This document shows, piece after piece, positions 1 through 11,699 of a stretch of DNA of 11,699 nt (position 1 is its first letter; every line of letters begins with the position of its first letter). A model generated the notes under the pieces. It saw only the letters and a program-made list of their open reading frames with translations. It was not told the DNA's origin and did not search any database. Position numbers and translations under genes: made by a program. The stretch comes from Candidatus Fraserbacteria bacterium. GTDB taxonomy: Bacteria; Bipolaricaulota; Bipolaricaulia; RBG-16-55-9. Where the stretch lies: the NCBI GenBank assembly GCA_037443265.1, contig JBBIOR010000021.1:18999-30697 (forward strand), read 5' to 3'.

Positions 1-1039
1 AAAAATACTTGACGAGGCCTCCGCCGATGAGAGCGCCTAAAGCTCCTCCGGCCGCGCCCAACAGCTGCCCCTCCAGCACGAAGATGGTAATGACTTGGGG
101 GCGCGTTGCGCCTAGAGCCACCATCGTGCCGATCTCGCGGACCCGCTCAAAGACGGACATCAGCATCGTGTTGGCCATGCCCAGCATGGCGATCGCGATC
201 ACGATGAATGAGATCACGCTCAGCAGCCAGCGTCGGAAAGTCAGGGTCTGCCAGATGGCCGCGCCGATCTCTTTCCACGTCTCCAGCTCAACTTTCCAAT
301 CTGCCAGACGATCATTAAGAATCTCTGCAACTTGGTCTGTCCAGTCAATGTCTTGGAGGCCGACGGCGATCTCCGTGATCTTCCCCGCAAGCCCCAGCAG
401 CCGTTGGGCGTCTTCCAGCTTGAGCATCACCACGGAGCCATCGTATTGGGGGTAGCCGGTATAGAAGATGCCCTTCACTTGCAGGCGGGTCGCGTTGAGC
501 GCGCCCGCGGCTGTGGTGGCGACGATCAGCGGGATCGAGCCGACGCGCAGCTTGAGATCCTCCGCCAGTTGTTTCCCAACTAAGATGAAGCCGGGCTGAT
601 CGTCCAGATAGCTGCCCTCGACGATGGAGTTGGCGATGACCCCGGTGGCTCGCTCGACTTCTGGGTGGATGGCCAGACCCATGACTCCAGTGCTCTCACT
701 GCCCCTGCCCAGGATCGCCCGGAAGCGAATTCGGGGCGAGACTCCGACGACTCGAGGGACGCTTCGCGCAGCCTGAAGCAGATCTTCTGATTCAGCCAGA
801 GTGCGATCGAGCGGGAGGAGCCGCGCCTTCTCTCGGTAACCTTGGGCATAGATCTGAATGTGTCCGGCTTGGGCCTTGATGAAATTATTCGTGATCTGCT
901 GATCCATCCCTCCGATCATGCCCTGGAAGAAGATGATGAGCGTAAGTCCCAGGCCGATGCCGGCGGACGTGATCACCGATCGGCGTCGATTGCGAAGCAC
1001 GTTGCGCAAGGCGATCTTGATCAGAGTGAACAAGAACAC
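1..1039 (-). CDS. ABC transporter permease, FtsX/LolE/MacB-like family (3' end outside the window)
   Basis: Manual translation from GTG at 1039 (purine-rich SD GAGGGGG upstream) is open to position 2. It reads MFLFTLIKIALRNVLRNRRRSVITSAGIGLG...LQVKGIFYTG...MANTMLMSVFERVREIGTMVALGATRPQVITIFVLEGQLLGAAGGALG. The 'A-x-RN-x-x-R-N-x-R-R-S' start and the 'ER-x-REIG-x-x-x-ALGA' FtsX motif are typical. It is absent from the ORF track, probably because no stop codon lies in the window. Confidence 0.93.
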   Translation of the reverse strand, partial: MFLFTLIKIALRNVLRNRRRSVITSAGIGLGLTLIIFFQGMIGGMDQQITNNFIKAQAGHIQIYAQGYREKARLLPLDRTLAESEDLLQAARSVPRVVGVSPRIRFRAILGRGSESTGVMGLAIHPEVERATGVIANSIVEGSYLDDQPGFILVGKQLAEDLKLRVGSIPLIVATTAAGALNATRLQVKGIFYTGYPQYDGSVVMLKLEDAQRLLGLAGKITEIAVGLQDIDWTDQVAEILNDRLADWKVELETWKEIGAAIWQTLTFRRWLLSVISFIVIAIAMLGMANTMLMSVFERVREIGTMVALGATRPQVITIFVLEGQLLGAAGGALGALIGGGLVKYF

Positions 1040-1387
1040 GCTAAGCACCCCCTCTTTAATTCGCGCGAGGGCGGATCAATAGGATCTCCTATCTGGTTGC
1101 TGCGACCACATCCTGAAATAGCTCCAAATTCTCCGCGCGCAGGCAGTCCCCAACGACTTCGAGCGGGCTGCGGCCTAGCTCTTTCATCAAAGCGCTGCGC
1201 GTCTTCGCTTTCGGCACGCAGCTCGAATGGCGTGGATCTCCGCGTGAGCCGTATGAGATCCTCATCCGTCGCGCGGCTCATTCTGACCTCCACGGCACTT
1301 CAGAAGCTCTCCGGAGGGTGACGCATGACCTTGCTCCCAGAGTCCCTGTGGCTATATGTTACCCTCATATCGAATGAGGAGGCTACC

Positions 1388-1861
1388 ATGCGTGTGCTCA
1401 AGCTGACAGCGTTGAGTCTCATTTTGATCCCTTTGGCATTGGCATCTGCCAATCCCACAGCAGCGGCTCCGTGTGCCCCCAACGGACGGCAGCTCCAGCC
1501 CCTTCATATCGCTTGGATCCACTGCCAGAACAACTATGACGAGGTGGTCGTCATCGTCAATGCCAGCGGGGAGGACATCGATCTGGCCGGATATCAGCTC
1601 GACAGTTTAGTGGGTCAGAAATTCGTCTTTCAGCCCAGCGAGTGGAACCCGAACTGCTGTGTCATCCAGGCCTATGGGACGCTTCGCATCCACTCCGGGC
1701 CGCGGAACCTTGAGCCCTTCGATGATCCCAGGGATCTACACTGGCTGAACGCGGATGGACAGCCGCGTCGCGACCTGGTGTGGCGAGACAGCTACGATGT
1801 GGCCACCCTGTTTAACGCACAGAAGCAGATTGTGGCTCACTACGAATATGGCCAGCCCTAA
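1388..1861 (+). CDS. Secreted lamin tail domain (LTD) protein
   Basis: ATG 1388 follows GAGGAGG, so it is preferred over 1325. Sec-type signal MRVLKLTALSLILIPLALASA. LTD pattern DEVVVIVNASGEDIDLAGYQL...FVF...LRIHSG...LHW...VWRDSYDVATLFNAQKQIV. Confidence 0.8.
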   Translation: MRVLKLTALSLILIPLALASANPTAAAPCAPNGRQLQPLHIAWIHCQNNYDEVVVIVNASGEDIDLAGYQLDSLVGQKFVFQPSEWNPNCCVIQAYGTLRIHSGPRNLEPFDDPRDLHWLNADGQPRRDLVWRDSYDVATLFNAQKQIVAHYEYGQP

Positions 1862-1877
1862 GGAGCTGATCCGCTCC
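1862..1877 (+). terminator. Possible weak hairpin after the LTD gene
   Basis: GGAGC-tgatcc-GCTCC, a 5-bp stem right after the stop codon, with only a broken T-rich tail (ATTCCCTTT). Confidence 0.3.
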
Positions 1878-1884
1878 ATTCCCT

Positions 1885-1913
1885 TTGCATAGATCTGGCA
1901 TACCGGCTATAAT
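1885..1913 (+). promoter_or_regulatory. sigma70-type promoter for tRNA-Glu (and probably hppA)
   Basis: TTGCAT (1885-1890), 17-nt spacer, TATAAT (1908-1913), then a GC-rich discriminator TCCGGGG. The -10 box ends 12 nt upstream of the tRNA. Confidence 0.85.
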
Positions 1914-1925
1914 TCCGGGGATTTC

Positions 1926-1998
1926 GGTCCCATCGTCTAGTGGCCTAGGACGCTGGTCTCTCAAGCCGGAAACAGGGGTTCGAATCCCCTTGGGACCG
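1926..1998 (+). tRNA. tRNA-Glu, anticodon CTC
   Basis: Cloverleaf: acceptor GGTCCCA/TGGGACC, D-arm GTCTAGTGGCCTAGGAC, anticodon stem CTGGT/GCCGG with loop CT-CTC-AA, T-arm AGGGG-TTCGAAT-CCCCT, discriminator G. CCA is not encoded (CCC follows). Confidence 0.97.
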
Positions 1999-2039
1999 CC
2001 CCTTTATTCTCAGAAGTTCAAGGAGGGCTACATCCATTT

Positions 2040-4085
2040 ATGGACCTCTCACAACTGGTCACACTATTAGCCATCGCCGCAGGCTTGGCCGCGATCGTAT
2101 ACGGCCTTGCGCTCACGCTCTACGTGCTGCGCCTGCCCCAGGGGGCCAAGCGCATGCAGGAGATCGCCTCCGCCATTCAGGAAGGTGCCTCGGCGTATCT
2201 CCATCGCCAATACTCGATCATCGGGCTGGTGGCCGTCGTCATTTTTATTGTGCTCCTTCTGGCACTGGGGGCCGCGACGGCTATCGGCTTTCTCCTTGGG
2301 GCAGTCTCCTCGGCCCTGGCGGGCTACGTGGGCATGAACGTGGCGGTGCGCACTAACGTGCGCACCGCGGAAGCAGCCAAGTCGGGGCTGGCGGCGGCCC
2401 TCTCCGTGGCCTTCAAGGGGGGCGCAGTCACAGGACTCTTCGTGGTGGGCTTGGGACTGCTCGCCATTGCTGCCTTCTTCTGGATCTTGCGCGTCTCTTT
2501 GGGATTTGAGCTTAAAGGGGCGCTCGATGCGCTGGTGGGCTTGGGCTTTGGAGGTTCTTTGATTAGCGTCTTCGCTCGTCTGGGCGGAGGCATCTACACC
2601 AAGGGGGCTGACGCGGGGGCTGATCTCGTCGGCAAAGTCGAAGCCGGCATCCCGGAAGATGATCCGAGAAACCCGGCCGTCATTGCTGACAATGTGGGTG
2701 ATAACGTGGGGGACGACGCGGGCATGGCGGCCGACCTCTTCGAGACGTACGCCGTCACAGCCGTCGCGGCCATGCTCTTAGGCTTCCTCGAGCTCAAAGA
2801 CACCAGCGCGAACGTGAGCCATGCCGTCGTCTACCCTCTGCTCTTGGGCGGGATCTCCATCGCCAGCTCCATTATTGGAAGTTTCTTCGTGAGGCTGCCC
2901 CAGAGTCAGAGCATCATGGGGGCGCTCTATCGCGGCCTGGCCGTGGCGGCTGTGCTGGCCATGAGCGCGTTCTATCCCGCTACGCAGTGGCTCATGGGCG
3001 ACATCGAGAAATTTCCGGTGTTGAATCTGTGGATCTCCTCCATTCTGGGCGTGATCGTCACCGTCGGGATGGTCCTGATCACGGATTATTACACCTCGAA
3101 GCGCTTCTCGTCCGTGCAGCGCATCGCTCAGGCTGCTGTGACGGGCCATGCGACAAATATTATTACGGGGCTGGCGGTGGGGATGCGCTCGACGGTCCTG
3201 CCCATTCTGCTCATCTGTGCGGCCATCTTAGCGGCGTATGCGCTCGCCGGGCTCTACGGGATCGCCATTGCTGCCATGGCCATGCTCTCCATGACGGGCA
3301 TTATTGTCGCGATCGATGCCTATGGGCCCATTACAGACAACGCCGGAGGGATTGCCGAGATGGCGGATCTGCCGGACTCGGTGCGCGCTGTGACAGACCC
3401 GCTCGATGCTGTAGGCAACACCACGAAAGCCGTCACCAAAGGCTATGCCATCGGCTCGGCGGGCCTGGCGGCCCTCGTGCTCTTCTCAGCCTATGCTCAA
3501 GAACTGGAAGCCAAGCTGGGCCTGGCGCTTCAATTCTTGCTCTCGGACCCCTGGGTGCTGGTGGGTCTCTTCCTTGGGGGCGCGCTGCCGTTCCTGTTTG
3601 CGTCTTTGGCGATGGACGCCGTGGGCGTGGCTGCGAGCGCAATCATTGAAGAAGTCCGCCGACAATTTAGGGAAAAGCCAGGGATCTTGCAGGGCAGAGA
3701 CCGGCCTGACTACGGTCAATGTGTGCGGATCGTGACCGCTACGGCTCAAAGAGCGATGATTGCTCCGGCGCTCATTCCCGTGTTGGCCCCGATTCTCGTA
3801 GGGTCTCTGCTGGGGGCCAAAGCTCTGGGGGGATTGCTGGTAGGATCGATCGTAACAGGTCTTTTTGTGGCCATCTCCATGACTACCGGAGGAGCAGCGT
3901 GGGACAATGCCAAGAAATTTATTGAAGAAGGGGCTTATGGGGGCAAGGGCTCTCCTCCCCACAAGGCCGCTGTCACGGGAGACACCGTGGGAGACCCCTG
4001 CAAGGACACGGCCGGACCGGCGATCAACCCCATGATCAAAGTGATCAACATCGTGGCGCTGCTCATTGTGCCCTTCCTGCGGTAG
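2040..4085 (+). CDS. hppA: Membrane-integral ion-pumping pyrophosphatase, K+-independent H+-PPase signature
   Basis: 681 aa with many TM helices. Motifs [96 protein letters not shown] at 2021-2026. Confidence 0.97.
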
Positions 4086-4090
4086 CTCTT

Positions 4091-4119
4091 TCGACTTCGT
4101 CTGCTCCGGATGCTAGAAT
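4091..4119 (+). promoter_or_regulatory. Putative extended -10 sigma70 promoter for the ABC-2 pair
   Basis: TCGACT (4091-4096), 17 nt, TAGAAT (4114-4119), with TG at 4111-4112 (TGn extended -10). Confidence 0.55.
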
Positions 4120-4128
4120 GAATCCGCC

Positions 4129-5061
4129 ATGAGCGGGGGAGAGATCCTGCGGGTCGAAGGGGTCACCAAAGAGTTTGACAGACTCGTCGCCGTCTCCGAG
4201 GTCTCGTTTGAAGTCCAGCGGGGTGAGATCTTTGGGCTTCTGGGTCCCAACGGCGCGGGCAAGACGACCCTTATCCGCATGATCCTGGGGATCTTGAGAC
4301 CCGACTCCGGCCGGATTCTCTTCCATCTGGACGGCGCGCCGGGGCCTCTTAAGAAGCAGAGAGTGGGCTATCTCCCTGAGGAGCGCGGCCTGCCTGAAGA
4401 TCGCTGGGTGGGCGAGGCGCTGCTCTATCTCGCCCGCCTGCACGGGATGGATCCCGCCCGCGCGCGCGAGCGCGCTCTCTATTGGCTGGATCGCTTTGCG
4501 CTGGGTGATCGCTTTCAGAGTCGCATCAAAGAGCTCTCCAAGGGAATGCAACAGAAAGTGCAATTCATCGCGGCCGTGCTGCATCAGCCGGAGCTGGTCG
4601 TGCTCGACGAGCCCTTTTCGGGCTTAGATCCCGTCAATCAGGATTTATTTCAAGATGTGATTCGCGAGCTGGCGCGCACGGGCATGACCATCTTGCTCTC
4701 TTCTCACCAGATGAACCTCGTCGAAAATCTGTGCGATCGGGTCTTTCTCATCAATCATGGCCGTCAGGTTTTGTATGGGGAACTCAGCCAGATCAAGCGC
4801 GATCACGGCGAGGATGTCGTGCGATTGAGATATAAAGCCCAAGATCCTGATCCACTGCGCAGTTGGCTGTCCCACAACGGACATGTGCGGATCCTCTCGC
4901 TCGATCGCGACCAAGCTGAGCTGCTCCTTCTCAAAGGGACCTCTCCCAATGAGTTCTTGCGCTCCATAGTCGATCGCGTGGAGATCACAGAGCTTTTCAT
5001 CACGCAGCCCTCGCTCCATCGGATCTTCGTGGAGGTCGTGCAGAGGGGGCCTTCGAGATGA
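4129..5061 (+). CDS. ABC-2 type exporter ATP-binding protein (NatA/YhaQ-like)
   Basis: Walker [19 protein letters not shown], signature LSKGMQQK, Walker [16 protein letters not shown]-loop SSH, C-terminal PSLHRIF. Confidence 0.95.
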
Positions 5062-5990
5062 AGCACGTGCTGGCCGTGGCCCAGTGGGAGTTCAGCGGCA
5101 CACTGAGAAACCGCCAATTTCTCTTCTTCACGGTGCTCTTTCCCCTGTTCATTCTGGGATTCAGCGCGCTCTCCATCGTGCTGAGCGAGCCGGGGACGCG
5201 CGCGGCGCTCTCCGCCGTCAACCCAGAGCAACTGAGCCAGAAGCTGAGTGCTGTCGGAGCCGATCCTCAGAAGACGTTCCCTCTCGTCTTAGCCACGATC
5301 TTGGCTTTCATCTTCTTGTTCGTGGTGCTCTTCTCGGGGACATTTGTGCTTCAGAACATCGTCCGCGAGAAGCAGAGTCGGGTGGTAGAGCTGCTCTTGG
5401 CGGCCATCTCGCCCCGAGCCCTTATCTATGGAAAGATTCTAGCTTTTGGGGCCTTGGGCCTCTTTCAAGTGTTCATCTGGGTGTTGGTGGGGCTGGTGGC
5501 TCTGCTCGTGCTCGGGCCGTATTTGGGCATCCCGACCTGGCCGCTTCTGGGGCTGATCTTGGCGTATATGCCCTGGGATAAGCTCTTGCTCTTTGCGATC
5601 TATTTCGTCTTGGGGTATCTCTTCATCGCGTCTTTTTCGGCGGGCATGGGATCGACCATGACGGATGTCTTAAGCGGCCAGCAGCTACAGAGCTTGATCA
5701 TTGCCCTGCCCGCGGCGCTGCCGCTCCTTATTTTTCACATCATCTTGACGGACCCTGAGGGCTTTTTGCCGCAGCTCTTCAGCTACATTCCTCCGACGAT
5801 TCCAGGGACGATGATGCTCCGGCTGGCTGTGGCTTCGATCCCGCTCTGGGAGGTGGCCCTGAGCCTCGGGGTGCTGCTGGCCAGCATGCTCATCGTGATG
5901 AGGCTGGCGGGCAAGATCTTCGAGATTGGGATCTTGATGTACGGCAAGTCGGCATCCCTCAAGGAGATCTGGCGCTGGGTGCGGAGTTGA
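5058..5990 (+). CDS. ABC-2 type exporter permease (NatB/YhaP-like)
   Basis: ATGA overlap with the ATPase gene; about 7 hydrophobic segments. Motifs IVREKQSRVVELLLAAISP...GKI and KIFEIGILMYGK. The first extracytoplasmic loop is short. Confidence 0.92.
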   Translation: MKHVLAVAQWEFSGTLRNRQFLFFTVLFPLFILGFSALSIVLSEPGTRAALSAVNPEQLSQKLSAVGADPQKTFPLVLATILAFIFLFVVLFSGTFVLQNIVREKQSRVVELLLAAISPRALIYGKILAFGALGLFQVFIWVLVGLVALLVLGPYLGIPTWPLLGLILAYMPWDKLLLFAIYFVLGYLFIASFSAGMGSTMTDVLSGQQLQSLIIALPAALPLLIFHIILTDPEGFLPQLFSYIPPTIPGTMMLRLAVASIPLWEVALSLGVLLASMLIVMRLAGKIFEIGILMYGKSASLKEIWRWVRS

Positions 5991-6048: not shown

Positions 6049-6831
6049 ATGAGCAACGCTCTTCAGACGTTGGCCGTCATCTTGGTGGCCCTGCTCTTGC
6101 TCCTGGTGATCGCGTTGGCCGCTCCGGAGCTGATCTCATCAAGGACCACCGTGACGGAGCCGGTAGGGCCTAGGACTTCCCCGGCTGTCCCGGTGACGCC
6201 TTCGCCGGCGCCGGGCCAAGACGTGACCGTGATGGTCATCATCCCTGAGGTCGTGCTTCGGCAGCAGATTCCCGATCCGGCTGCGGAGAAGGCCGTCATT
6301 CGCGCCCTCATTTTGAAAGACTTTCGCGTGGTGGATCAATCCCAGGTGAAGAAGATCCGCTACAACGATCAAGTGCTTCTAGCTATCCATGGCGATCCCG
6401 AGGCCGTGAAAGCGCTTCAAGCTCTGGCACTCGAGTACGATGCCGACGTGCTGGTGCTCGGAGAGGCCTTTGCGGAAGGCCCCATTCCCGCTCCCGGAGG
6501 CTTGCAATCTGCCCGAGCGCGGGTCGAGATCCGGGCGATTCTGGCGCGGACGGGTCAGATCCTCGCCTCCGAGGCCGTCACGGCCGGTGGCGCGGACTTA
6601 ACGTTCAACATCGCGGCCAAGACGGCCCTTCAGAACGGCGGCCAGCAGATGGGCCAAATTTTAACGAAGGCGCTCTTGGCCAAGTTCGGCCGACAATCCG
6701 GGGCGCAGGGCAAAGTGGAGCTCCTCGTCACGTCCATGCCCTTCCCGCTCTATCTGCTCTTCAAGGAGAAATTGACGGCCTCGAGCGCTCGCGTGACGTT
6801 TAAGCTCGTCGCTGGAGAGGGAGGGGAGTGA
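6049..6831 (+). CDS. N-terminally anchored or secreted protein with a CsgG/FlgT-middle-like alpha/beta domain
   Basis: N-terminal hydrophobic helix, Pro/Thr-rich linker, then VMVIIPE...DPAAEKAVIRALILKDFRVVD...ADVLVLGEAF...ARARVEIRAILARTGQILAS, the pattern of the CsgG/TolB-N/FlgT fold. Recognised by eye only. Confidence 0.65.
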   Translation: MSNALQTLAVILVALLLLLVIALAAPELISSRTTVTEPVGPRTSPAVPVTPSPAPGQDVTVMVIIPEVVLRQQIPDPAAEKAVIRALILKDFRVVDQSQVKKIRYNDQVLLAIHGDPEAVKALQALALEYDADVLVLGEAFAEGPIPAPGGLQSARARVEIRAILARTGQILASEAVTAGGADLTFNIAAKTALQNGGQQMGQILTKALLAKFGRQSGAQGKVELLVTSMPFPLYLLFKEKLTASSARVTFKLVAGEGGE

Positions 6832-7820
6832 GCGTCGTGTCTGACTTCGTCAAGATCGTCTTCGTCGGGCTTCTGGTGGCGGCGGCTCTGTTCGTGGTCT
6901 TAATGATCATCCCCAAAGAGCCGCCGAATCAGGTGATTGTACCCATCGAGCCGGTGAACGCGGCCGTCATTCGCTTTGACGATCGCAGCGGCCGGGGGAC
7001 CCTGGGCGAGGAGATGAGAATCCGCTTGGAAGGGGAGCTGGTGAATCGTCCGGGCCTGCAAGTCCTCGCGCGCGAGCGGCTAGATGTGATCCTGCAGGAG
7101 CAGCGGCTCTGTGCCTTGGGGCTGTGTGATCCCCAGACGGCCCTTGAAATCGGCAGACTCACGGGCGTAAACAAGCTCGTCACCGGCGTGATCCTGGGGG
7201 TCAGCCAGGACCTCCAAGAGACTCAGATCTGCAAGGAGATTCGGCTCTGGCCGCCGGGGTGCGCACGCTCCGTACCCGGAACGGAGCTTCGGGTGGAGCT
7301 GGAGATGCAGTTCCAGATTCTGAACGCGCAGACGGGCCGCATTGAAGTCTCCGAGCGTCTGACGCATTCGGCCTCCCAGTCGGTGGAGCGCGGCCAGCCC
7401 CTGCCGGATGCGAACAAGATCCTGCGGGCCGTCATGGATAGCTTAAGCAGTCGCATCGCGGATCGCATCCAGACGGGCTACACGCGGGAGCTACGCTACG
7501 GGCTCTACAAGAGCTACAAGACGAAGGGCAGCGCCTATGAGGGAGAGAGTCCAGCGACGACGTTCACCGCAGAAGATCCACAAGTCGTGTTGATTGTGCA
7601 TCTGGTCAGAATGCAGCCCACTGATCAATTCTCTGTGGCCTGGATTGATCCGCAGGGTAATCGCATGGAGACTCCCGCTGTGCCCGGCGATGCCGGCTGG
7701 GTTCCCTTCACGCTGCCGCTCTTAGGGAAGCCCAGCGGCTCCTGGACTGTAGAAGGCTTCATCAACGGCCAGAAGGTCTTTGCGGAGACGTTCGTTGTGC
7801 TGGGCTCCTCCAGCCAGTGA
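6828..7820 (+). CDS. CsgG/HfaB-family protein with an N-terminal TM anchor and a C-terminal Ig-like beta domain
   Basis: GTGA overlap with the upstream gene, SD GGAGGGGA. Motifs AVIRFDDRSG, LQVLARERLDVILQEQRL, DPQTALEIGRLTGVNKLVTGVI, QILNAQTGRI are typical of CsgG-like domains. C-terminal WIDPQG...GSWTVEGFING suggests a beta-sandwich. Confidence 0.8.
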   Translation: MSVVSDFVKIVFVGLLVAAALFVVLMIIPKEPPNQVIVPIEPVNAAVIRFDDRSGRGTLGEEMRIRLEGELVNRPGLQVLARERLDVILQEQRLCALGLCDPQTALEIGRLTGVNKLVTGVILGVSQDLQETQICKEIRLWPPGCARSVPGTELRVELEMQFQILNAQTGRIEVSERLTHSASQSVERGQPLPDANKILRAVMDSLSSRIADRIQTGYTRELRYGLYKSYKTKGSAYEGESPATTFTAEDPQVVLIVHLVRMQPTDQFSVAWIDPQGNRMETPAVPGDAGWVPFTLPLLGKPSGSWTVEGFINGQKVFAETFVVLGSSSQ

Positions 7821-9178
7821 TGAACTTGAGCTTCACCAAGAATAAAGTGGCATTCTGTGGGCTGCTGGGGCTGGCGTTTCTGAGTGGCTGCTCCTCTGTC
7901 AATCAGCCGCCCACGGTCAAGATCACAGCCCCGCTAGAGGGAAGCCTTCAGGGCAGTGCAGTCGCATTCCAGAGCAGCGCCAGCGACCCCGATGGGCGCA
8001 TAGCAACCTACCGTTGGGACTTTGGAGACGGCACGACGAGCGAGGAACCTCAGCCGAAGCACACATACGCCCAGAGCGGCGAGTATCGCGTGGAGCTTGT
8101 CGTGACAGACGATCGGGGTGCCAGCGCACGTCATAGCATCACCATCAGAGTACAAGTGGGTCCGAAGGCCGTGGCCACGCTCCGTCAAGCCCACAGCGAC
8201 CCAGCCGTGCTGCTACAGCACATAAGCGGCGAAACCCCCTTGGCCGTCGTCTTCGATAGCTCGCGCTCCATGCCGGAGCCCGGCACCAAGATCATGCGCT
8301 GGCACTGGGACTTCGGGGACGGTGAGGAGAGCGGTGAGCCAAACCCGATTCACATCTACACCCGAGGTGGCCAATACCAGCCCACCCTCATCATCACCGA
8401 CGATCGGGGTCGGACGAGTCAGGCCCAGCTCAGCGTTCAAGTCACCTCCTATGAGGCCTATGAAGGCGCTGTGGAACTTAAGGATGCCACGGTACGCTAT
8501 CAGCTGTATGAGAAAGCCACGAAAGCCTCATCCGCTGGGCCTTCGATGAGTTACTGGTACGTGGTCGAGACGCCCCGCAAATTGAGGGAAGGCGAGATCC
8601 GGGCTGTGCTGGCAGATATCATTCAGAGAGCCCAACAGCGCCCCAGGATCACGCGCATCACGGTCTATCTCTTCGATAAAATCAAAAAGAACTTCATGAT
8701 CGCAGGAGACTACGAGCACTATTTGGGGAGCGCAATATGGGACAAGACGGAGCTACCTGAGAAGGCGCTTTCGTTCAGTGCCAATCGCGCGTATCTTTTA
8801 GGGAAGGCGATTCCCGTCTTGGGATACGAGATCCGGGAGCAGGTGTTGGAGCCGGATGATCCAGAATGCGAAGGGCTGTGTGAGCGCTATCGCATTGGAG
8901 TTGCCCAGATTACGATTCAAGATGAGTCTGTATGTCGAGGGCTTCTGCTGACGACCATCCGCGAGATCGCCCGCTGGCGCTTAGGGGCAAGCTATGATGG
9001 CTTTCTGGTGCAGATCTACTCCAAAGACGGCGGGCAACCGTTGGCTTGGGTGTTGGGCGTGAGGGGCCCGTTGACCTTCGAGCAGCTTTCCGTTCAAAAG
9101 CTGGCTGAGCGGCCGAGCCGCTGGGACATCCAGGAGCCCTCGCTGCGGGTGAGCTTGGGTCAAGTGCCTTCCTGCTGA
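7817..9178 (+). CDS. PKD-domain lipoprotein (2x PKD plus an unknown C-terminal region)
   Basis: Lipobox FLSG|C. Two PKD domains: SDPDGRIATYRWDFGDG...HTY...GEYRVELVVTDDRG and WHWDFGDG...NPIHIY...GQYQPTLIITDDRG. Start is GTG 7817 or ATG 7820, coupled to the upstream stop. Confidence 0.9.
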   Translation: MMNLSFTKNKVAFCGLLGLAFLSGCSSVNQPPTVKITAPLEGSLQGSAVAFQSSASDPDGRIATYRWDFGDGTTSEEPQPKHTYAQSGEYRVELVVTDDRGASARHSITIRVQVGPKAVATLRQAHSDPAVLLQHISGETPLAVVFDSSRSMPEPGTKIMRWHWDFGDGEESGEPNPIHIYTRGGQYQPTLIITDDRGRTSQAQLSVQVTSYEAYEGAVELKDATVRYQLYEKATKASSAGPSMSYWYVVETPRKLREGEIRAVLADIIQRAQQRPRITRITVYLFDKIKKNFMIAGDYEHYLGSAIWDKTELPEKALSFSANRAYLLGKAIPVLGYEIREQVLEPDDPECEGLCERYRIGVAQITIQDESVCRGLLLTTIREIARWRLGASYDGFLVQIYSKDGGQPLAWVLGVRGPLTFEQLSVQKLAERPSRWDIQEPSLRVSLGQVPSC

Positions 9179-9215
9179 GCCCATCTCTTCTGATCACAAA
9201 GGGGTTCTGAGGGCC

Positions 9216-9243
9216 TTGACAAATCTTTAAAGTTCCTTACCTT
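9216..9243 (+). promoter_or_regulatory. sigma70-type promoter of the Tat-lipoprotein gene
   Basis: Perfect TTGACA (9216-9221), 16 nt, TACCTT (9238-9243). SD AGGAGGT (9276-9282) lies 7 nt before ATG 9290. Confidence 0.6.
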
Positions 9244-9251
9244 ACCTTACC
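9235..9251 (+). repeat. Short tandem repeat (CCTTA)3CC over the -10 region
   Basis: The sequence reads CCTTA CCTTA CCTTA CC. Confidence 0.85.
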
Positions 9252-9289
9252 GGTGGACTTGAAGTCTGCCCACAGAGGAGGTACAAGCA

Positions 9290-10177
9290 ATGTGCTGCGG
9301 CAAGGAAACGTACGAAGAGATGCAGGGAGGCCGGGTAGGACTCACGCGCAGAAAGGTGCTCAAGGCGATGGGAGCCGGAGCAGGGTTAGTAGCGCTGGGT
9401 GGGCTGACGGGATGTACTGCGTGGCTTGCCGATTCAGGTTTTACCTCTGAAAGTAGTGCTGGGAAGGTTTCAGCGGCGGGAACCGCATCAGATCGCCTAA
9501 AAAAAGCTCTATCTAGAGTGGATCAGAAGCTTATTCATGAGATCAATGAGACTAAAGAAGCTTGGAGTAGAGTTTGGAAGATGGCCTTTCACAATCATGA
9601 GAGCGATAGAGCAAGTGTTATTTCAACATTCGAGCATGCGAAGAAGAAAACGAGGATCTTGATCGATCAGTATGATAGAATTGATTTCATCGGTGCGCTT
9701 GAGAGTTTGGCTTTAACCGCGAGTCTGGCTGACGTAAATACAGCTCTAAGTCAAGACACAGAGTTTAAGAGAGAACTAGAGAAAAGATTCATGGATGACC
9801 TAGTCGGAATTGGATTTTCCGAAAGGGATGCCAATGACGAAGTGCAAAGACACTTTCATCGCCTCTTCACTCAAGCTGAATATGACCAAGCTCGCCAAGG
9901 GCTCAGTGGGCAAGGTCTGAGTAATGCATTTCAGGAGTCACTCAATGTGCTGGACCCAGGCGATGGAGGAGGTGGCGGATCTCCCACTCCTTCGCAATGC
10001 ACTGCGGCAGTAATAAGTTGCATTGCGATTTTCGGCGTAATAGTCCTCGGATGTATTGCGATAGGATTAGCAGAGTGTCTAGCTCTTCTGGGTAATATTG
10101 GACCCGGGGGTGCAGGCAATCTTGTTCTAACGGCAGCTTTGATTTGTTATATCGATCTCATAGAATGCTTTGCATAG
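9290..10177 (+). CDS. Tat-exported lipoprotein with a C-terminal Cys-rich hydrophobic peptide; candidate bacteriocin precursor (halocin C8-like architecture)
   Basis: TRRKVLK twin-arginine motif, h-region, lipobox LTG|C42, charged helical middle, DPGDGGGGGSPTPS linker, and a 59-aa hydrophobic tail with 6 Cys. The CDS itself is solid; the bacteriocin function is inferred. Confidence 0.7.
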   Translation: MCCGKETYEEMQGGRVGLTRRKVLKAMGAGAGLVALGGLTGCTAWLADSGFTSESSAGKVSAAGTASDRLKKALSRVDQKLIHEINETKEAWSRVWKMAFHNHESDRASVISTFEHAKKKTRILIDQYDRIDFIGALESLALTASLADVNTALSQDTEFKRELEKRFMDDLVGIGFSERDANDEVQRHFHRLFTQAEYDQARQGLSGQGLSNAFQESLNVLDPGDGGGGGSPTPSQCTAAVISCIAIFGVIVLGCIAIGLAECLALLGNIGPGGAGNLVLTAALICYIDLIECFA

Positions 10178-10179
10178 CC

Positions 10180-10785
10180 ATGATAAAATGGAATCGATGG
10201 TCGGCTCTATTCATAGTCCTTGCGATTTTTGTTGTTCAGGCAGTTGCTTGGGCAACTACGGGAGATTCGCTCTATGGATTGACGTTTCTGGCCTTTGGTT
10301 CCCTGGCTTGGGCCATTGGCGCAGTCTGCGAAGCGCATCGCATTTCATCTGCTGGACAACGTTGGACCGCTGTTTCATTCTTCGTGATGTTCCTCTTATT
10401 TGGTAGTTTAGCAGCTTCTGTGATAGATAATACATACTGGTCGTGGGGTTTTCTTGCAGCTGCAGCAATTGGCGGACCCACCTTGGCCATGATCTTGCAA
10501 TTACTCAGGCCCATACCTGAAGATAAAGATGTTTTCAAACCTAGCAAGGAATCGTCTACCAACAGTCTACCATATAGGTTCTTCTTCTGGCTGTTGACCG
10601 TAGGTCTATTCCTCTTGGTAGCGCTGCCACTCCTGTCAACCATCTCGCTATCCGAGCTGGAGAAACGTCATACCATCATCCCAGCCGTGGCTCTTTTAGG
10701 GTGGATTTTGTTACTTTTTTTAATCTACAATATCGCCTACCTCATCTCACTGATCAAATGGTTCAAAGCTAGGTCGAAAGACTAA
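10180..10785 (+). CDS. Hypothetical multi-pass membrane protein (about 6 TM); candidate immunity protein
   Basis: ATG 10180 lies 2 nt after the upstream TAG (translational coupling). 201 aa with about 6 hydrophobic stretches and the same AT-richer composition as the upstream gene body. No family recognised. Confidence 0.7.
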   Translation: MIKWNRWSALFIVLAIFVVQAVAWATTGDSLYGLTFLAFGSLAWAIGAVCEAHRISSAGQRWTAVSFFVMFLLFGSLAASVIDNTYWSWGFLAAAAIGGPTLAMILQLLRPIPEDKDVFKPSKESSTNSLPYRFFFWLLTVGLFLLVALPLLSTISLSELEKRHTIIPAVALLGWILLLFLIYNIAYLISLIKWFKARSKD

Positions 10786-10919
10786 GAGTCAACCCATGAC
10801 ATAACGAAATACAAAAGGAAAGCCATCATTCCATCTCCATGACGCAGGATGGCTTATCCACCGGGCTTTCACCCTCCAGTCATTCACTTTCCACGTCATT
10901 TCCGGTTAATCTCACAGTA

Positions 10920-11084
10920 ATGAAGCCGCAGAGCAGCAGAAACCCTGTGAACATATGGTTGTTCCTGCTTGTGAATCTAGAAACTGTGCTGCTCTTGCTA
11001 GGTTTGGCAACCTTGTTCGGCATATATGGTCGGATTCTCACCATGGCCGTCGTCGGGTTGACAGCCACAACGGGCTTGCTCTGA
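10920..11084 (+). CDS. Small hydrophobic ORF or membrane-protein gene remnant
   Basis: MKPQSSRNPVNIWLFLLVNLETVLLLLGLATLFGIYGRILTMAVVGLTATTGLL, about 2 TM-like segments. No clear SD. Confidence 0.35.
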   Translation: MKPQSSRNPVNIWLFLLVNLETVLLLLGLATLFGIYGRILTMAVVGLTATTGLL

Positions 11085-11114
11085 GTCTCCCTCTCCCCTA
11101 AGATGAGTCAAGCC

Positions 11115-11234
11115 ATGTCCAGCGTCAAAGTGAAAATCTGCGGCAATCGCACGCTTCGTGATGTGCAGGCCACGCGGGGAGCGGACGCCCAAGGGTTCAT
11201 CGTTGGCTTCCCTGACTCTGAGAGGGAATGTTAG
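11115..11234 (+). pseudogene. trpF: 5' fragment of phosphoribosylanthranilate isomerase
   Basis: MSSVKVKICGNRTLRDVQATRGADAQGFIVGFPDSEREC*. VKICG and GADAxGF are the TrpF N-terminal motifs. It stops after 39 codons, whereas full TrpF is about 200 aa. Confidence 0.85.
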
Positions 11235-11254
11235 ATTGATGGAGTCTCATCTCC

Positions 11255-11506
11255 ATGGCTGGGCGCGGCAAACTTCTGGAACGCATCTTATAGGGCACAT
11301 CGGACACAAATATCCCCGTTAGCGGACTGTGCCAGTTGCTACGCAAGCTGGAGTTCGAAGAACGAATCCGAGGTGACCATCATATCTTCACCAAGGACGG
11401 GGTAGCAGAGATCTTGAACCTGCAACCCAAAGACTCCAAGGCGAAACCCTATCAAGTCAAACAGGTTCGCCATGTGGTTCTCAAGTACAGATTAGTAGGC
11501 GATGAA
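11255..11506 (+). pseudogene. hicA: HicA-family mRNA interferase toxin with a premature stop
   Basis: MAGRGKLLERIL*GTSDTNIPVSGLCQLLRKLEFEERIRGDHHIFTKDGVAEILNLQPKDSKAKPYQVKQVRHVVLKYRL. It has the HicA G-x-H-H-I-F and KAKPYQVKQV motifs. In-frame TAG at 11291-11293. Confidence 0.88.
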
Positions 11507-11591
11507 GCTCTGAGGAACGTAGAAGTGATAGCGCAAGAATGGATTGAGACGGCTAACCCCTGCGCCGAAAGGCCGCTTGATCTTTGCCTGG
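11504..11591 (+). pseudogene. hicB: C-terminal remnant of a HicB-family antitoxin
   Basis: EALRNVEVIAQEWIETA (11504-11554) and, after a frame change, PAPKGRLIFA (11559-11588) match the end of short HicB proteins. The N-terminal half is missing. Confidence 0.75.
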
Positions 11592-11626
11592 CGTTATCCG
11601 ACAATCTTCCTTACCGAAGAGCGCGA

Positions 11627-11699
11627 GGATTCACGCGCAGGCAAGTGCTGCGGGCCATGGGAGCCGGAGCAGGGTTGATCACGCTGGGTGGGCTGATAG
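11627..11699 (+). repeat. Second copy of the Tat leader of gene 9290..10177 (runs off the window)
   Basis: GFTRRQVLRAMGAGAGLITLGGLI versus GLTRRKVLKAMGAGAGLVALGGLT: 18/24 aa and 59/73 nt identical to 9338-9410 by hand alignment. Confidence 0.92.

Follow-up and report, generated by a model that had tools for sequence, protein, structure and literature searches.

The 11,699-nucleotide stretch analysed here (positions 18,999 to 30,697 of the forward strand of contig JBBIOR010000021.1, Candidatus Fraserbacteria bacterium, assembly GCA_037443265.1; the whole stretch is hereafter called the window) ends in a short segment, copy 2, that repeats part of the leader of a gene lying 2.3 kb upstream, copy 1, the two being direct repeats in the same orientation. 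Copy 1 is an open reading frame (ORF) at 9290-10177 that starts 8 nt past a GAGGAGG motif and encodes a 295-aa protein, P0001. The first 42 residues of this protein (MCCGKETYEE..LTRRKVLKAMGAGAGLVALGGLTGC) comprise a twin-arginine motif and a lipobox, the latter reading L-T-G-C at residues 39-42, with C42 invariant in all eight proteins compared. The two leaders are:

9290..9415, plus strand: copy 1 leader, codons 1-42, with an MCCGKETYEE n-region, a TRRKVLK twin-arginine motif and an LTGC lipobox.
11627..11699, plus strand: copy 2 leader, codons 17-40, identical to copy 1 at 59 of 73 nt and ending at the window edge.

The original prediction had reported this match between 11627-11699 and 9338-9410, and we reproduced it: the alignment is ungapped (81% identity), its longest exact runs are 20 and 15 nt, and the next best placement of the copy 2 73-mer, with both strands of the window tried, reached only 34/73. 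Against the leaders of three related loci described below (L001-L003) the copy 2 segment is identical at 55-58 of 73 nt. Copy 1 and copy 2 share one reading frame, G-[LF]-T-R-R-[KQ]-V-L-[KR]-A-M-G-A-G-A-G-L-[VI]-[AT]-L-G-G-L-[TI], and a twin-arginine motif followed by a mildly hydrophobic h-region is present in both, the core of copy 1 being L-T-R-R-K-V-L-K-A-M-G-A-G-A-G-L-V-A-L-G-G-L and that of copy 2 F-T-R-R-Q-V-L-R-A-M-G-A-G-A-G-L-I-T-L-G-G-L. The arginine pair is thus retained in copy 2, as had been claimed. Among the 24 codons compared 14 are identical, four differ synonymously and six change the residue (copy 1 to copy 2: L>F, K>Q, K>R, V>I, A>T and T>I); the earlier description of the changes as mostly silent or conservative holds roughly, given the four synonymous codons and the K/R, V/I and L/F exchanges, but it passed over K>Q, A>T and T>I. 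The copy 2 core TRRQVLRAMGAGAGLITLGGL is identical at 21 of 21 residues to that of another protein, P0032, which keeps an intact MCCG-type start, and a LIGC lipobox occurs in a further family member, P0036; copy 2 thus derives from an ordinary member of the family. Only L-I and one further base (G) precede the window edge, so that the copy 2 lipobox cysteine lies beyond view, and the copy 2 payload falls outside the window as well. The Pfam model PF10518 scored 15 bits on the copy 2 ORF, against a cut-off of 22.7.

The leader belongs to a small protein family. A word-indexed protein search with P0001 found eight proteins at E≤0.01 among 7818 candidates, namely P0001 itself and an orthologue of 76% identity, the other six having only the leader (~80% identical) and a Cys-rich tail in common with it. 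A profile built from four 45-residue leaders and searched against 1.84 billion cluster representatives gave 29 matches at E≤1e-3, 14 of these at E≤1e-10. We inspected 25 of the 29, leaving out the repetitive multi-stretch matches P0038, P0041, P0042 and P0045; an MCC start was present in 17 of the 25 and absent from the other 8, and 26 positions of the 42-residue leader were invariant across seven proteins. Family members are 248-358 aa long and of one architecture, in which a fixed 42-residue N-terminus (MCCG..E.YEE, the twin-arginine motif and an L-x-G-C lipobox) is followed by a helical body lacking conservation between types, then by a Gly- or Pro-rich linker, and finally by a hydrophobic helical hairpin of ~60-90 residues that holds nearly all of the cysteines. 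There are at least three unrelated body types. Of 22 members, 21 have all cysteines beyond the lipobox within their last 100 residues and 20 have an even number of them, a pattern that fits a disulfide-bonded C-terminal module. The family is rare, being represented so far only by metagenome proteins and one Candidatus Fraserbacteria metagenome-assembled genome (MAG), and we found no paper on it in the literature on Fraserbacteria or on polymorphic toxins that combine twin-arginine translocation (Tat) or lipoprotein signals with immunity. Two candidate assignments were set aside: matches to NF058595, the 'lipo-invert C-terminal anchoring domain', were too weak (2 of 18 members, the best reaching E=0.3 and 11.4 bits where the cut-off is 37), and the GGGtGRT and GrdA clusters that the ESM Atlas returned for the tail alone (0.76-0.77) were rejected as noise.

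At the DNA level, a leader scan of species-representative genomes matched 47 stretches, of which six were confirmed by tblastn and gave five loci, the best being 64% identical in its best aligned segment. Two of these loci, L004 and L005, were dropped as ordinary Tat signals (31% identity). The remaining three, L001-L003, are separate contigs of one Candidatus Fraserbacteria MAG; each has one leader gene, the three have different bodies, and small Cys-poor membrane ORFs lie behind them. We compared copy 1 with the L001, L002 and L003 leader genes as four full copies. Their pairwise nucleotide identity is 80-100% in the 5' untranslated region (UTR; -40 to -1), 79-92% in codons 1-16 and 73-90% in codons 17-42, and past codon 42, the lipobox Cys, it drops to ~25% in all six pairs. 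The idea of a tandem family with one export leader and different payloads is upheld by this fall from 73-90% to ~25% as far as leader and payloads go, but the tandem part of it amounts to a pair of copies separated by 2.3 kb. Between leader paralogues, 9-16 of the 42 codons show synonymous differences; differences this numerous indicate that the leader is kept by selection on the peptide and that the copies are old, and they argue against recent gene conversion as the source of the similarity. The features preceding copy 1 are:

9216..9221, plus strand: candidate -35 box TTGACA of copy 1, a putative assignment; TTGACA also occurs upstream of the L003 repeat tract.
9235..9251, plus strand: (CCTTA) x3.4 tract upstream of copy 1, called by Tandem Repeats Finder.
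9252..9289, plus strand: conserved 5' UTR, with a hairpin, GGTGGACT-TGA-AGTCTGCC (9252-9270), and the Shine-Dalgarno (SD) sequence GAGGAGG (9275-9281).

The (CCTTA) unit is repeated 11.4 times in L003 (8669-8763) and at least five times at the starts of L001 and L002 (1-64), both of which contigs begin inside the tract, 64 nt before the ATG; the tract thus also breaks assemblies. The hairpin recurs in three RNA folds, where the ribosome-binding site, through its AAGG/GAGG, is paired with CCUU units, at z-scores of only -1.0 to -1.6; the variable tract could be a translational or phase-variable switch. Neither 9000-11699 nor the conserved block matched a known RNA family in Rfam, and a promoter and terminator consensus scan found nothing above shuffled expectation and called no full promoter at the 9216 box.

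Behind the leader, the remainder of copy 1 and its 3' flank consist of:

9416..10177, plus strand: copy 1 payload, with a low-GC all-helical body, a Gly5 linker (~9959-9976) and a hydrophobic 6-Cys tail (residues 237-295).
10180..10785, plus strand: 201-aa multi-pass membrane ORF with ~6 hydrophobic segments and 1 Cys, starting 3 nt past the copy 1 stop.
10839..11084, plus strand: 81-aa ORF for a small membrane protein, conserved in L002 and serving as the 3' flank marker of the copy 1 locus.

GC content is 43-49% over the payload and partner gene (9411-10800) compared with 55-63% in the leader and flanks, which fits a module of foreign or separate origin behind a resident leader. An AlphaFold2 model of P0001 from an 18-sequence alignment (mean predicted local distance difference test score, pLDDT, of 64.8) has an all-helical body at residues 66-220 (pLDDT 75-85), and its tail forms two long helices of low confidence. 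A PDB sequence search with P0001 found nothing meaningful, and in Pfam and NCBIfam no family was found for P0001 besides a sub-threshold Tat signal, and none for the 201-aa ORF. Small Cys-poor multi-pass ORFs lie downstream of the leader gene in all four loci, and from its position the 201-aa membrane ORF is a candidate partner or immunity gene; L002 additionally carries a Rce1-like/CPBP gene (PF02517, E=7e-20).

The clearest comparison of payloads is between the copy 1 locus and L002. A block at 10857-11066, within the 81-aa ORF, matches L002 2983-3195 with 72% nucleotide identity over 213 aligned columns; this block stands directly before trpB and trpA in L002 and precedes the start of trpF in the window, and the ORF is continuous in a single frame in the window and split between frames in L002. 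From leader to shared block the copy 1 locus spans 1.4 kb, made up of the P0001 body and one membrane ORF, and L002 spans 2.8 kb, made up of a P0004-type body, two small membrane ORFs and the CPBP gene. The payloads between these shared flanks are unrelated, which is direct evidence that one locus can exchange its payload, and comparison of the sequences supports one leader with many payloads for the family as a whole. The type-B gene of L002 (65-1145) has its leader (ORF 65-286) and body (ORF 237-1145) in different frames, a split that may be a sequencing error in a contig of ~2.3x coverage; P0004 is an intact 358-aa version of this gene, 74% identical. In L003 a leaderless ORF of 156 aa (10330-10800) lies downstream of the intact leader gene and aligns only to residues 190-331 of P0007 (of 333) and 218-331 of P0004 (of 358), ending in a proline run and then G-C-S-P-T-S-P-C. 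Behind it, up to 12132, are two membrane ORFs of 98 and 99 aa that are 59% identical to one another, followed by a 231-aa ORF, L003_231, whose C-terminal part is 44% identical to the 109-aa ORF beside the type-B gene, L002_109; both of these adjoin type-B tails.

Between the 81-aa ORF and copy 2 the window holds a series of damaged genes:

11103..11234, plus strand: 5' fragment of trpF, 43 codons and then a stop, with matches to phosphoribosylanthranilate isomerase only.
11255..11500, plus strand: hicA pseudogene with an in-frame TAG at 11291-11293 (Pfam HicA_toxin, E=0.0016).
11501..11588, plus strand: 3' remnant of hicB that lacks ~39 N-terminal codons and is frameshifted by a 17-nt deletion.
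11589..11626, plus strand: sequence scraps from the promoter and 5' leader of copy 2, of marginal collinearity: GACAATCTT (11600-11608), CCTTACC (11609-11615) and GAAGAG (11616-11621).

Counting copy 2, four consecutive genes are broken. Matches to the trpF fragment are weak but consistent (NCBIfam E=0.0019, model positions 2-37 of 209; PDB 1lbm, E=0.2), and its junction with hicA falls within ~30 nt (11226-11254). In a tblastn comparison an 86-aa HicA protein, P0056, aligned to the hicA pseudogene with 82% identity over 77 residues, reading through the stop, and the hicB remnant, whose final residues are GRLIFA, matches the HicB of L003 at 16 of 17 residues. L003 preserves what this arrangement looks like when complete: its intact hicB is followed by 257 nt with TTGACA, the 11.4 CCTTA units, the hairpin and the SD sequence, and then by the ATG and 16 codons that are missing from copy 2, so that ~300 nt separate hicB from codon 17 in L003 and only ~38-43 nt separate the hicB remnant from codon 17 in the window. 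Upstream of copy 2 there is no (CCTTA)n tract, hairpin, SD sequence, ATG, MCCGKE or any of the first ~16 codons, all of which the four full copies have, and by comparison with the layout of L003 copy 2 is without the whole 5' unit. The claims that the SD and MCCGKE start are missing here and that copy 2 is 5'-deleted are accordingly sustained. Read in another frame, the GAAGAG scrap gives T-E-E, which is consistent with a remnant of ETYEE after a 13-nt frame-shifting loss. A protein search with the 121-aa open frame at 11336-11698 recovered relatives of HicA and HicB only, none of them identical to the query, and no protein of 66-2000 aa in a set of 5.8 billion contains this frame.

With slightly better than even confidence, we read copy 2 as a decaying, 5'-truncated and probably defunct paralogue of copy 1. 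It would once have had a full 5' unit, and deletions would have stripped it of its repeat tract, UTR hairpin, SD sequence, ATG and first ~16 codons, and trpF, hicA and hicB next to it would have decayed in the same patch; copy 2 is presumably not expressed. For the family itself we propose that the leader sends a folded precursor through the Tat pathway and lipid-anchors it, that the disulfide-stapled tail may act on membranes as an antimicrobial peptide, whether released by cleavage or presented on the surface, and that the helical body, the small downstream membrane proteins or both might protect the producer; the halocin C8 precursor discussed below follows such a logic. The main object of interest here is the family and its constant 5' unit, copy 2 being most likely a truncated leftover of one member.

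Several observations weigh against this account. The unseen body of copy 2 beyond the window could be intact, and its frame is open from 11294 to the window end, with an in-frame GTG at 11525, 8 nt past a GAGGA (11512-11516), and a further in-frame ATG at 11657, so that translation from a substitute start is possible. The copy 2 leader is also little decayed, changing two of the 17 visible positions that are invariant in seven relatives (L18F and T40I). The upstream scraps to which the original prediction drew attention are present but marginal as evidence of collinearity, with 18 of 1000 shuffles, and 5 of 302 natural 43-mers taken from the window, scoring at least as high as the gapped alignment of 11584-11626 against 9180-9337, and the broken neighbours could in part reflect assembly or consensus errors in the MAG. 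On the functional side, TIGR01409 (Tat signal) scored 14.5 bits on P0001, under its curated cut-off of 16.7, which 4 of 23 relatives pass (P0003, 17.8; P0037, 20.7; P0049, 21.6; P0051, 16.8), and the window contains no tat genes. Pfam and NCBIfam scans matched no member to a toxin, bacteriocin or immunity family, and a Foldseek search of the P0001 model against the PDB gave no match at E≤0.001, only generic helical bundles. In the ESM Atlas a Halocin C8 cluster ranked third at 0.80, a lead only, as a third of shuffled proteins reach this score.

The original prediction suggested that copy 2 may be a silent donor, that is, an orphan cassette with an intact payload and neither promoter nor start, which would be activated by leader recombination with copy 1; such recombination would remove 9411-11699, and the copy 1 promoter, SD sequence and MCCG start would then precede the new payload. 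We consider this unlikely. In its favour are the polymorphism of the family, with its sharp junction, the different payloads found at positionally equivalent loci, the common orientation and leader core of the two copies, and the good preservation of the copy 2 leader at the protein level; a second 5'-truncated copy behind an intact gene, the L003 ORF at 10330-10800, also speaks for it. However, copy 2 keeps at least 73 nt of leader at only 81% identity, and exact runs of no more than 20 and 15 nt make it a poor recombination substrate, the abundant synonymous differences between leaders speak against frequent conversion, and the L003 orphan keeps no leader at all, which closes this route to it. 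The decayed genes around copy 2 likewise count against a maintained donor, as does the fact that its payload lies outside the window.

Copy 2 might alternatively still work from a substitute start, the likeliest being the GTG at 11525 within the hicB remnant, which would give it a new 36-residue n-region in place of MCCGKETYEE. The frame open over 11294-11699, the SD-like GAGGA 8 nt ahead of this in-frame GTG, and the intact RR motif, h-region and L-I-(G) of the lipobox all agree with such use, but both the GTG and the GAGGA are ordinary hicB codons that are also found in L003, no predicted protein of at least 66 aa with the copy 2 frame occurs in the 5.8-billion-protein set, and the identity pattern indicates selection on the leader peptide. 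All four full copies at the DNA level keep the MCC start, as do 17 of the 25 inspected leader-profile matches; the 8 that do without it leave room within the family for a changed n-region. We regard a working copy 2 as very unlikely, and give equally little credence to an assembly artefact, in which a chimeric or collapsed join at trpF'-hicA or hicB'-leader would mean that copy 2 does not truly lie 2.3 kb from copy 1. Family loci do break assemblies (L001 and L002 begin in the (CCTTA)n tract 64 nt before the ATG, and the L002 gene is frameshift-split in its low-coverage contig of ~2.3x), and the copy 2 patch has several abrupt junctions. Against this, at 81% identity copy 2 is no duplicate of copy 1, in-frame stops and 17-nt deletions are not produced by chimeric joins, and the hicB-leader adjacency recurs in L003, which indicates that at least that join is natural.

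Beyond the truncated-paralogue reading of copy 2, a more ambitious scheme, which we hold to be quite unlikely, makes the conserved 5' unit a dedicated expression and export site for lineage-specific, halocin-like, disulfide-stapled membrane peptides, with modules that would swap at the lipobox codon, truncated copies that would be archived, and a tract length that would set which paralogue is translated. The unit would comprise the variable (CCTTA)n, the UTR hairpin, the SD sequence and the 42-residue Tat-lipoprotein leader with its invariant MCCG n-region. On the same long-shot terms, payload-plus-immunity modules would exchange by recombination, 11600-11699 and L003 10330-10800 being archived modules, and, with no greater probability, the CCUU units would pair with the AAGGAGG ribosome-binding site to control translation.

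As RiPP (ribosomally synthesized and post-translationally modified peptide) precursors, the prochlorosins of the Nif11/NHLP type have a conserved leader, hypervariable Cys-rich cores and many paralogues per genome. The family resembles them in its shared leader, variable Cys-rich core and Gly-rich junction before the core, but its leader is a predicted Tat/lipoprotein signal and a body of ~180 residues parts leader from tail; we saw no RiPP-modifying enzyme or C39-peptidase transporter in the window or among the Pfam-scanned ORFs. Polymorphic toxin loci such as CdiA-CT/CdiI, Rhs and MafB/MafI, which carry orphan modules, are similar in that a conserved N-terminal targeting part joins variable C-termini at a sharp junction, a small partner gene comes immediately after, payloads differ between equivalent loci, and 5'-truncated copies lie in the same orientation downstream of a full gene. 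Here, in contrast, the conserved part is a 42-residue signal peptide only, with no large delivery domain; family scans of members and neighbours found no known toxin or immunity domain; no type V, VI or VII secretion system context is present; and the identity between leader paralogues, 73-90%, is low for recombination to use them as a handle. The damaged hicA and hicB upstream of copy 2 derive from a HicAB type II toxin-antitoxin pair, given the 82% identity of hicA to the 86-aa HicA and the match of the hicB C-terminus to the HicB of L003, and differ from a working HicAB in the in-frame TAG of hicA and in the ~39 missing codons and frameshift of hicB.

The halocin C8 precursor of haloarchaea, ProC8, is a parallel in architecture; it is described as a Tat-secreted protein of 283 aa whose N-terminal part provides immunity and whose C-terminus supplies a 76-aa peptide (bioRxiv 10.64898/2026.07.27.741052). 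The family likewise has predicted Tat-targeted precursors of similar size (P0003, 283 aa; P0001, 295 aa) with a large N-terminal part and a C-terminal hydrophobic Cys-rich peptide of ~70-76 residues, a likeness of architecture only. By analogy with the immunity part of ProC8, protection of the producer is a possible role for the helical body. Unlike halocin C8, the family has a lipobox, a conserved MCCG n-region, the (CCTTA)n tract and separate downstream membrane ORFs, it is bacterial (a Fraserbacteria MAG) rather than haloarchaeal, and its bodies are not conserved between types. TIGR04449, the halocin C8 domain, matched neither P0001 nor any of 23 proteins at E≤1, nor any of 18 members at E≤10 among the matches listed (25 of 28 families); PF22862 (HalI-like) did not match P0001 or, among the matches listed (25 of 41 families), any of the 18 members at E≤10, and the tail alone gave no halocin lead in the ESM Atlas. 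On the sequence comparisons, membership in the halocin C8 family is not supported.

If the family reading is true, a barely studied candidate phylum has an undescribed class of exported antimicrobial precursors, in which the signal peptide alone would be the constant handle and everything behind it swapped, joining the logic of halocin C8 (a Tat precursor with a Cys-rich C-terminal peptide) with that of polymorphic toxins (variable payload, partner and truncated spares). The leader would then offer a simple search key for mining new membrane-active peptides, and it raises the question of why the n-region of a Tat signal is conserved, while copy 2 marks how leader loci decay or store modules.

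Toxin-antitoxin modules flank leader loci in both genomes, that of the window and that of L003, where a Gp49-like toxin and helix-turn-helix antitoxin pair on the minus strand and the intact hicB lie just upstream of the leader gene (7486-8507). In the region of the window upstream of copy 1 (6049-9178), two ORFs match CsgG-like proteins weakly (E=0.054 and 9e-8), and the protein encoded next has two PKD domains and LSGCSS, a lipobox-like motif. These ORFs and the leader gene may form a cell-surface gene cluster. Farther upstream (1-5990) are a permease-like ORF that runs off the left edge, a Lamin-tail-domain protein (1325-1861), a tRNA (1926-1998), a 681-aa membrane ORF (2040-4085) that by eye resembles a proton pyrophosphatase, and a pair of ORFs (4129-5990) that by eye resemble an ABC ATPase and its permease.

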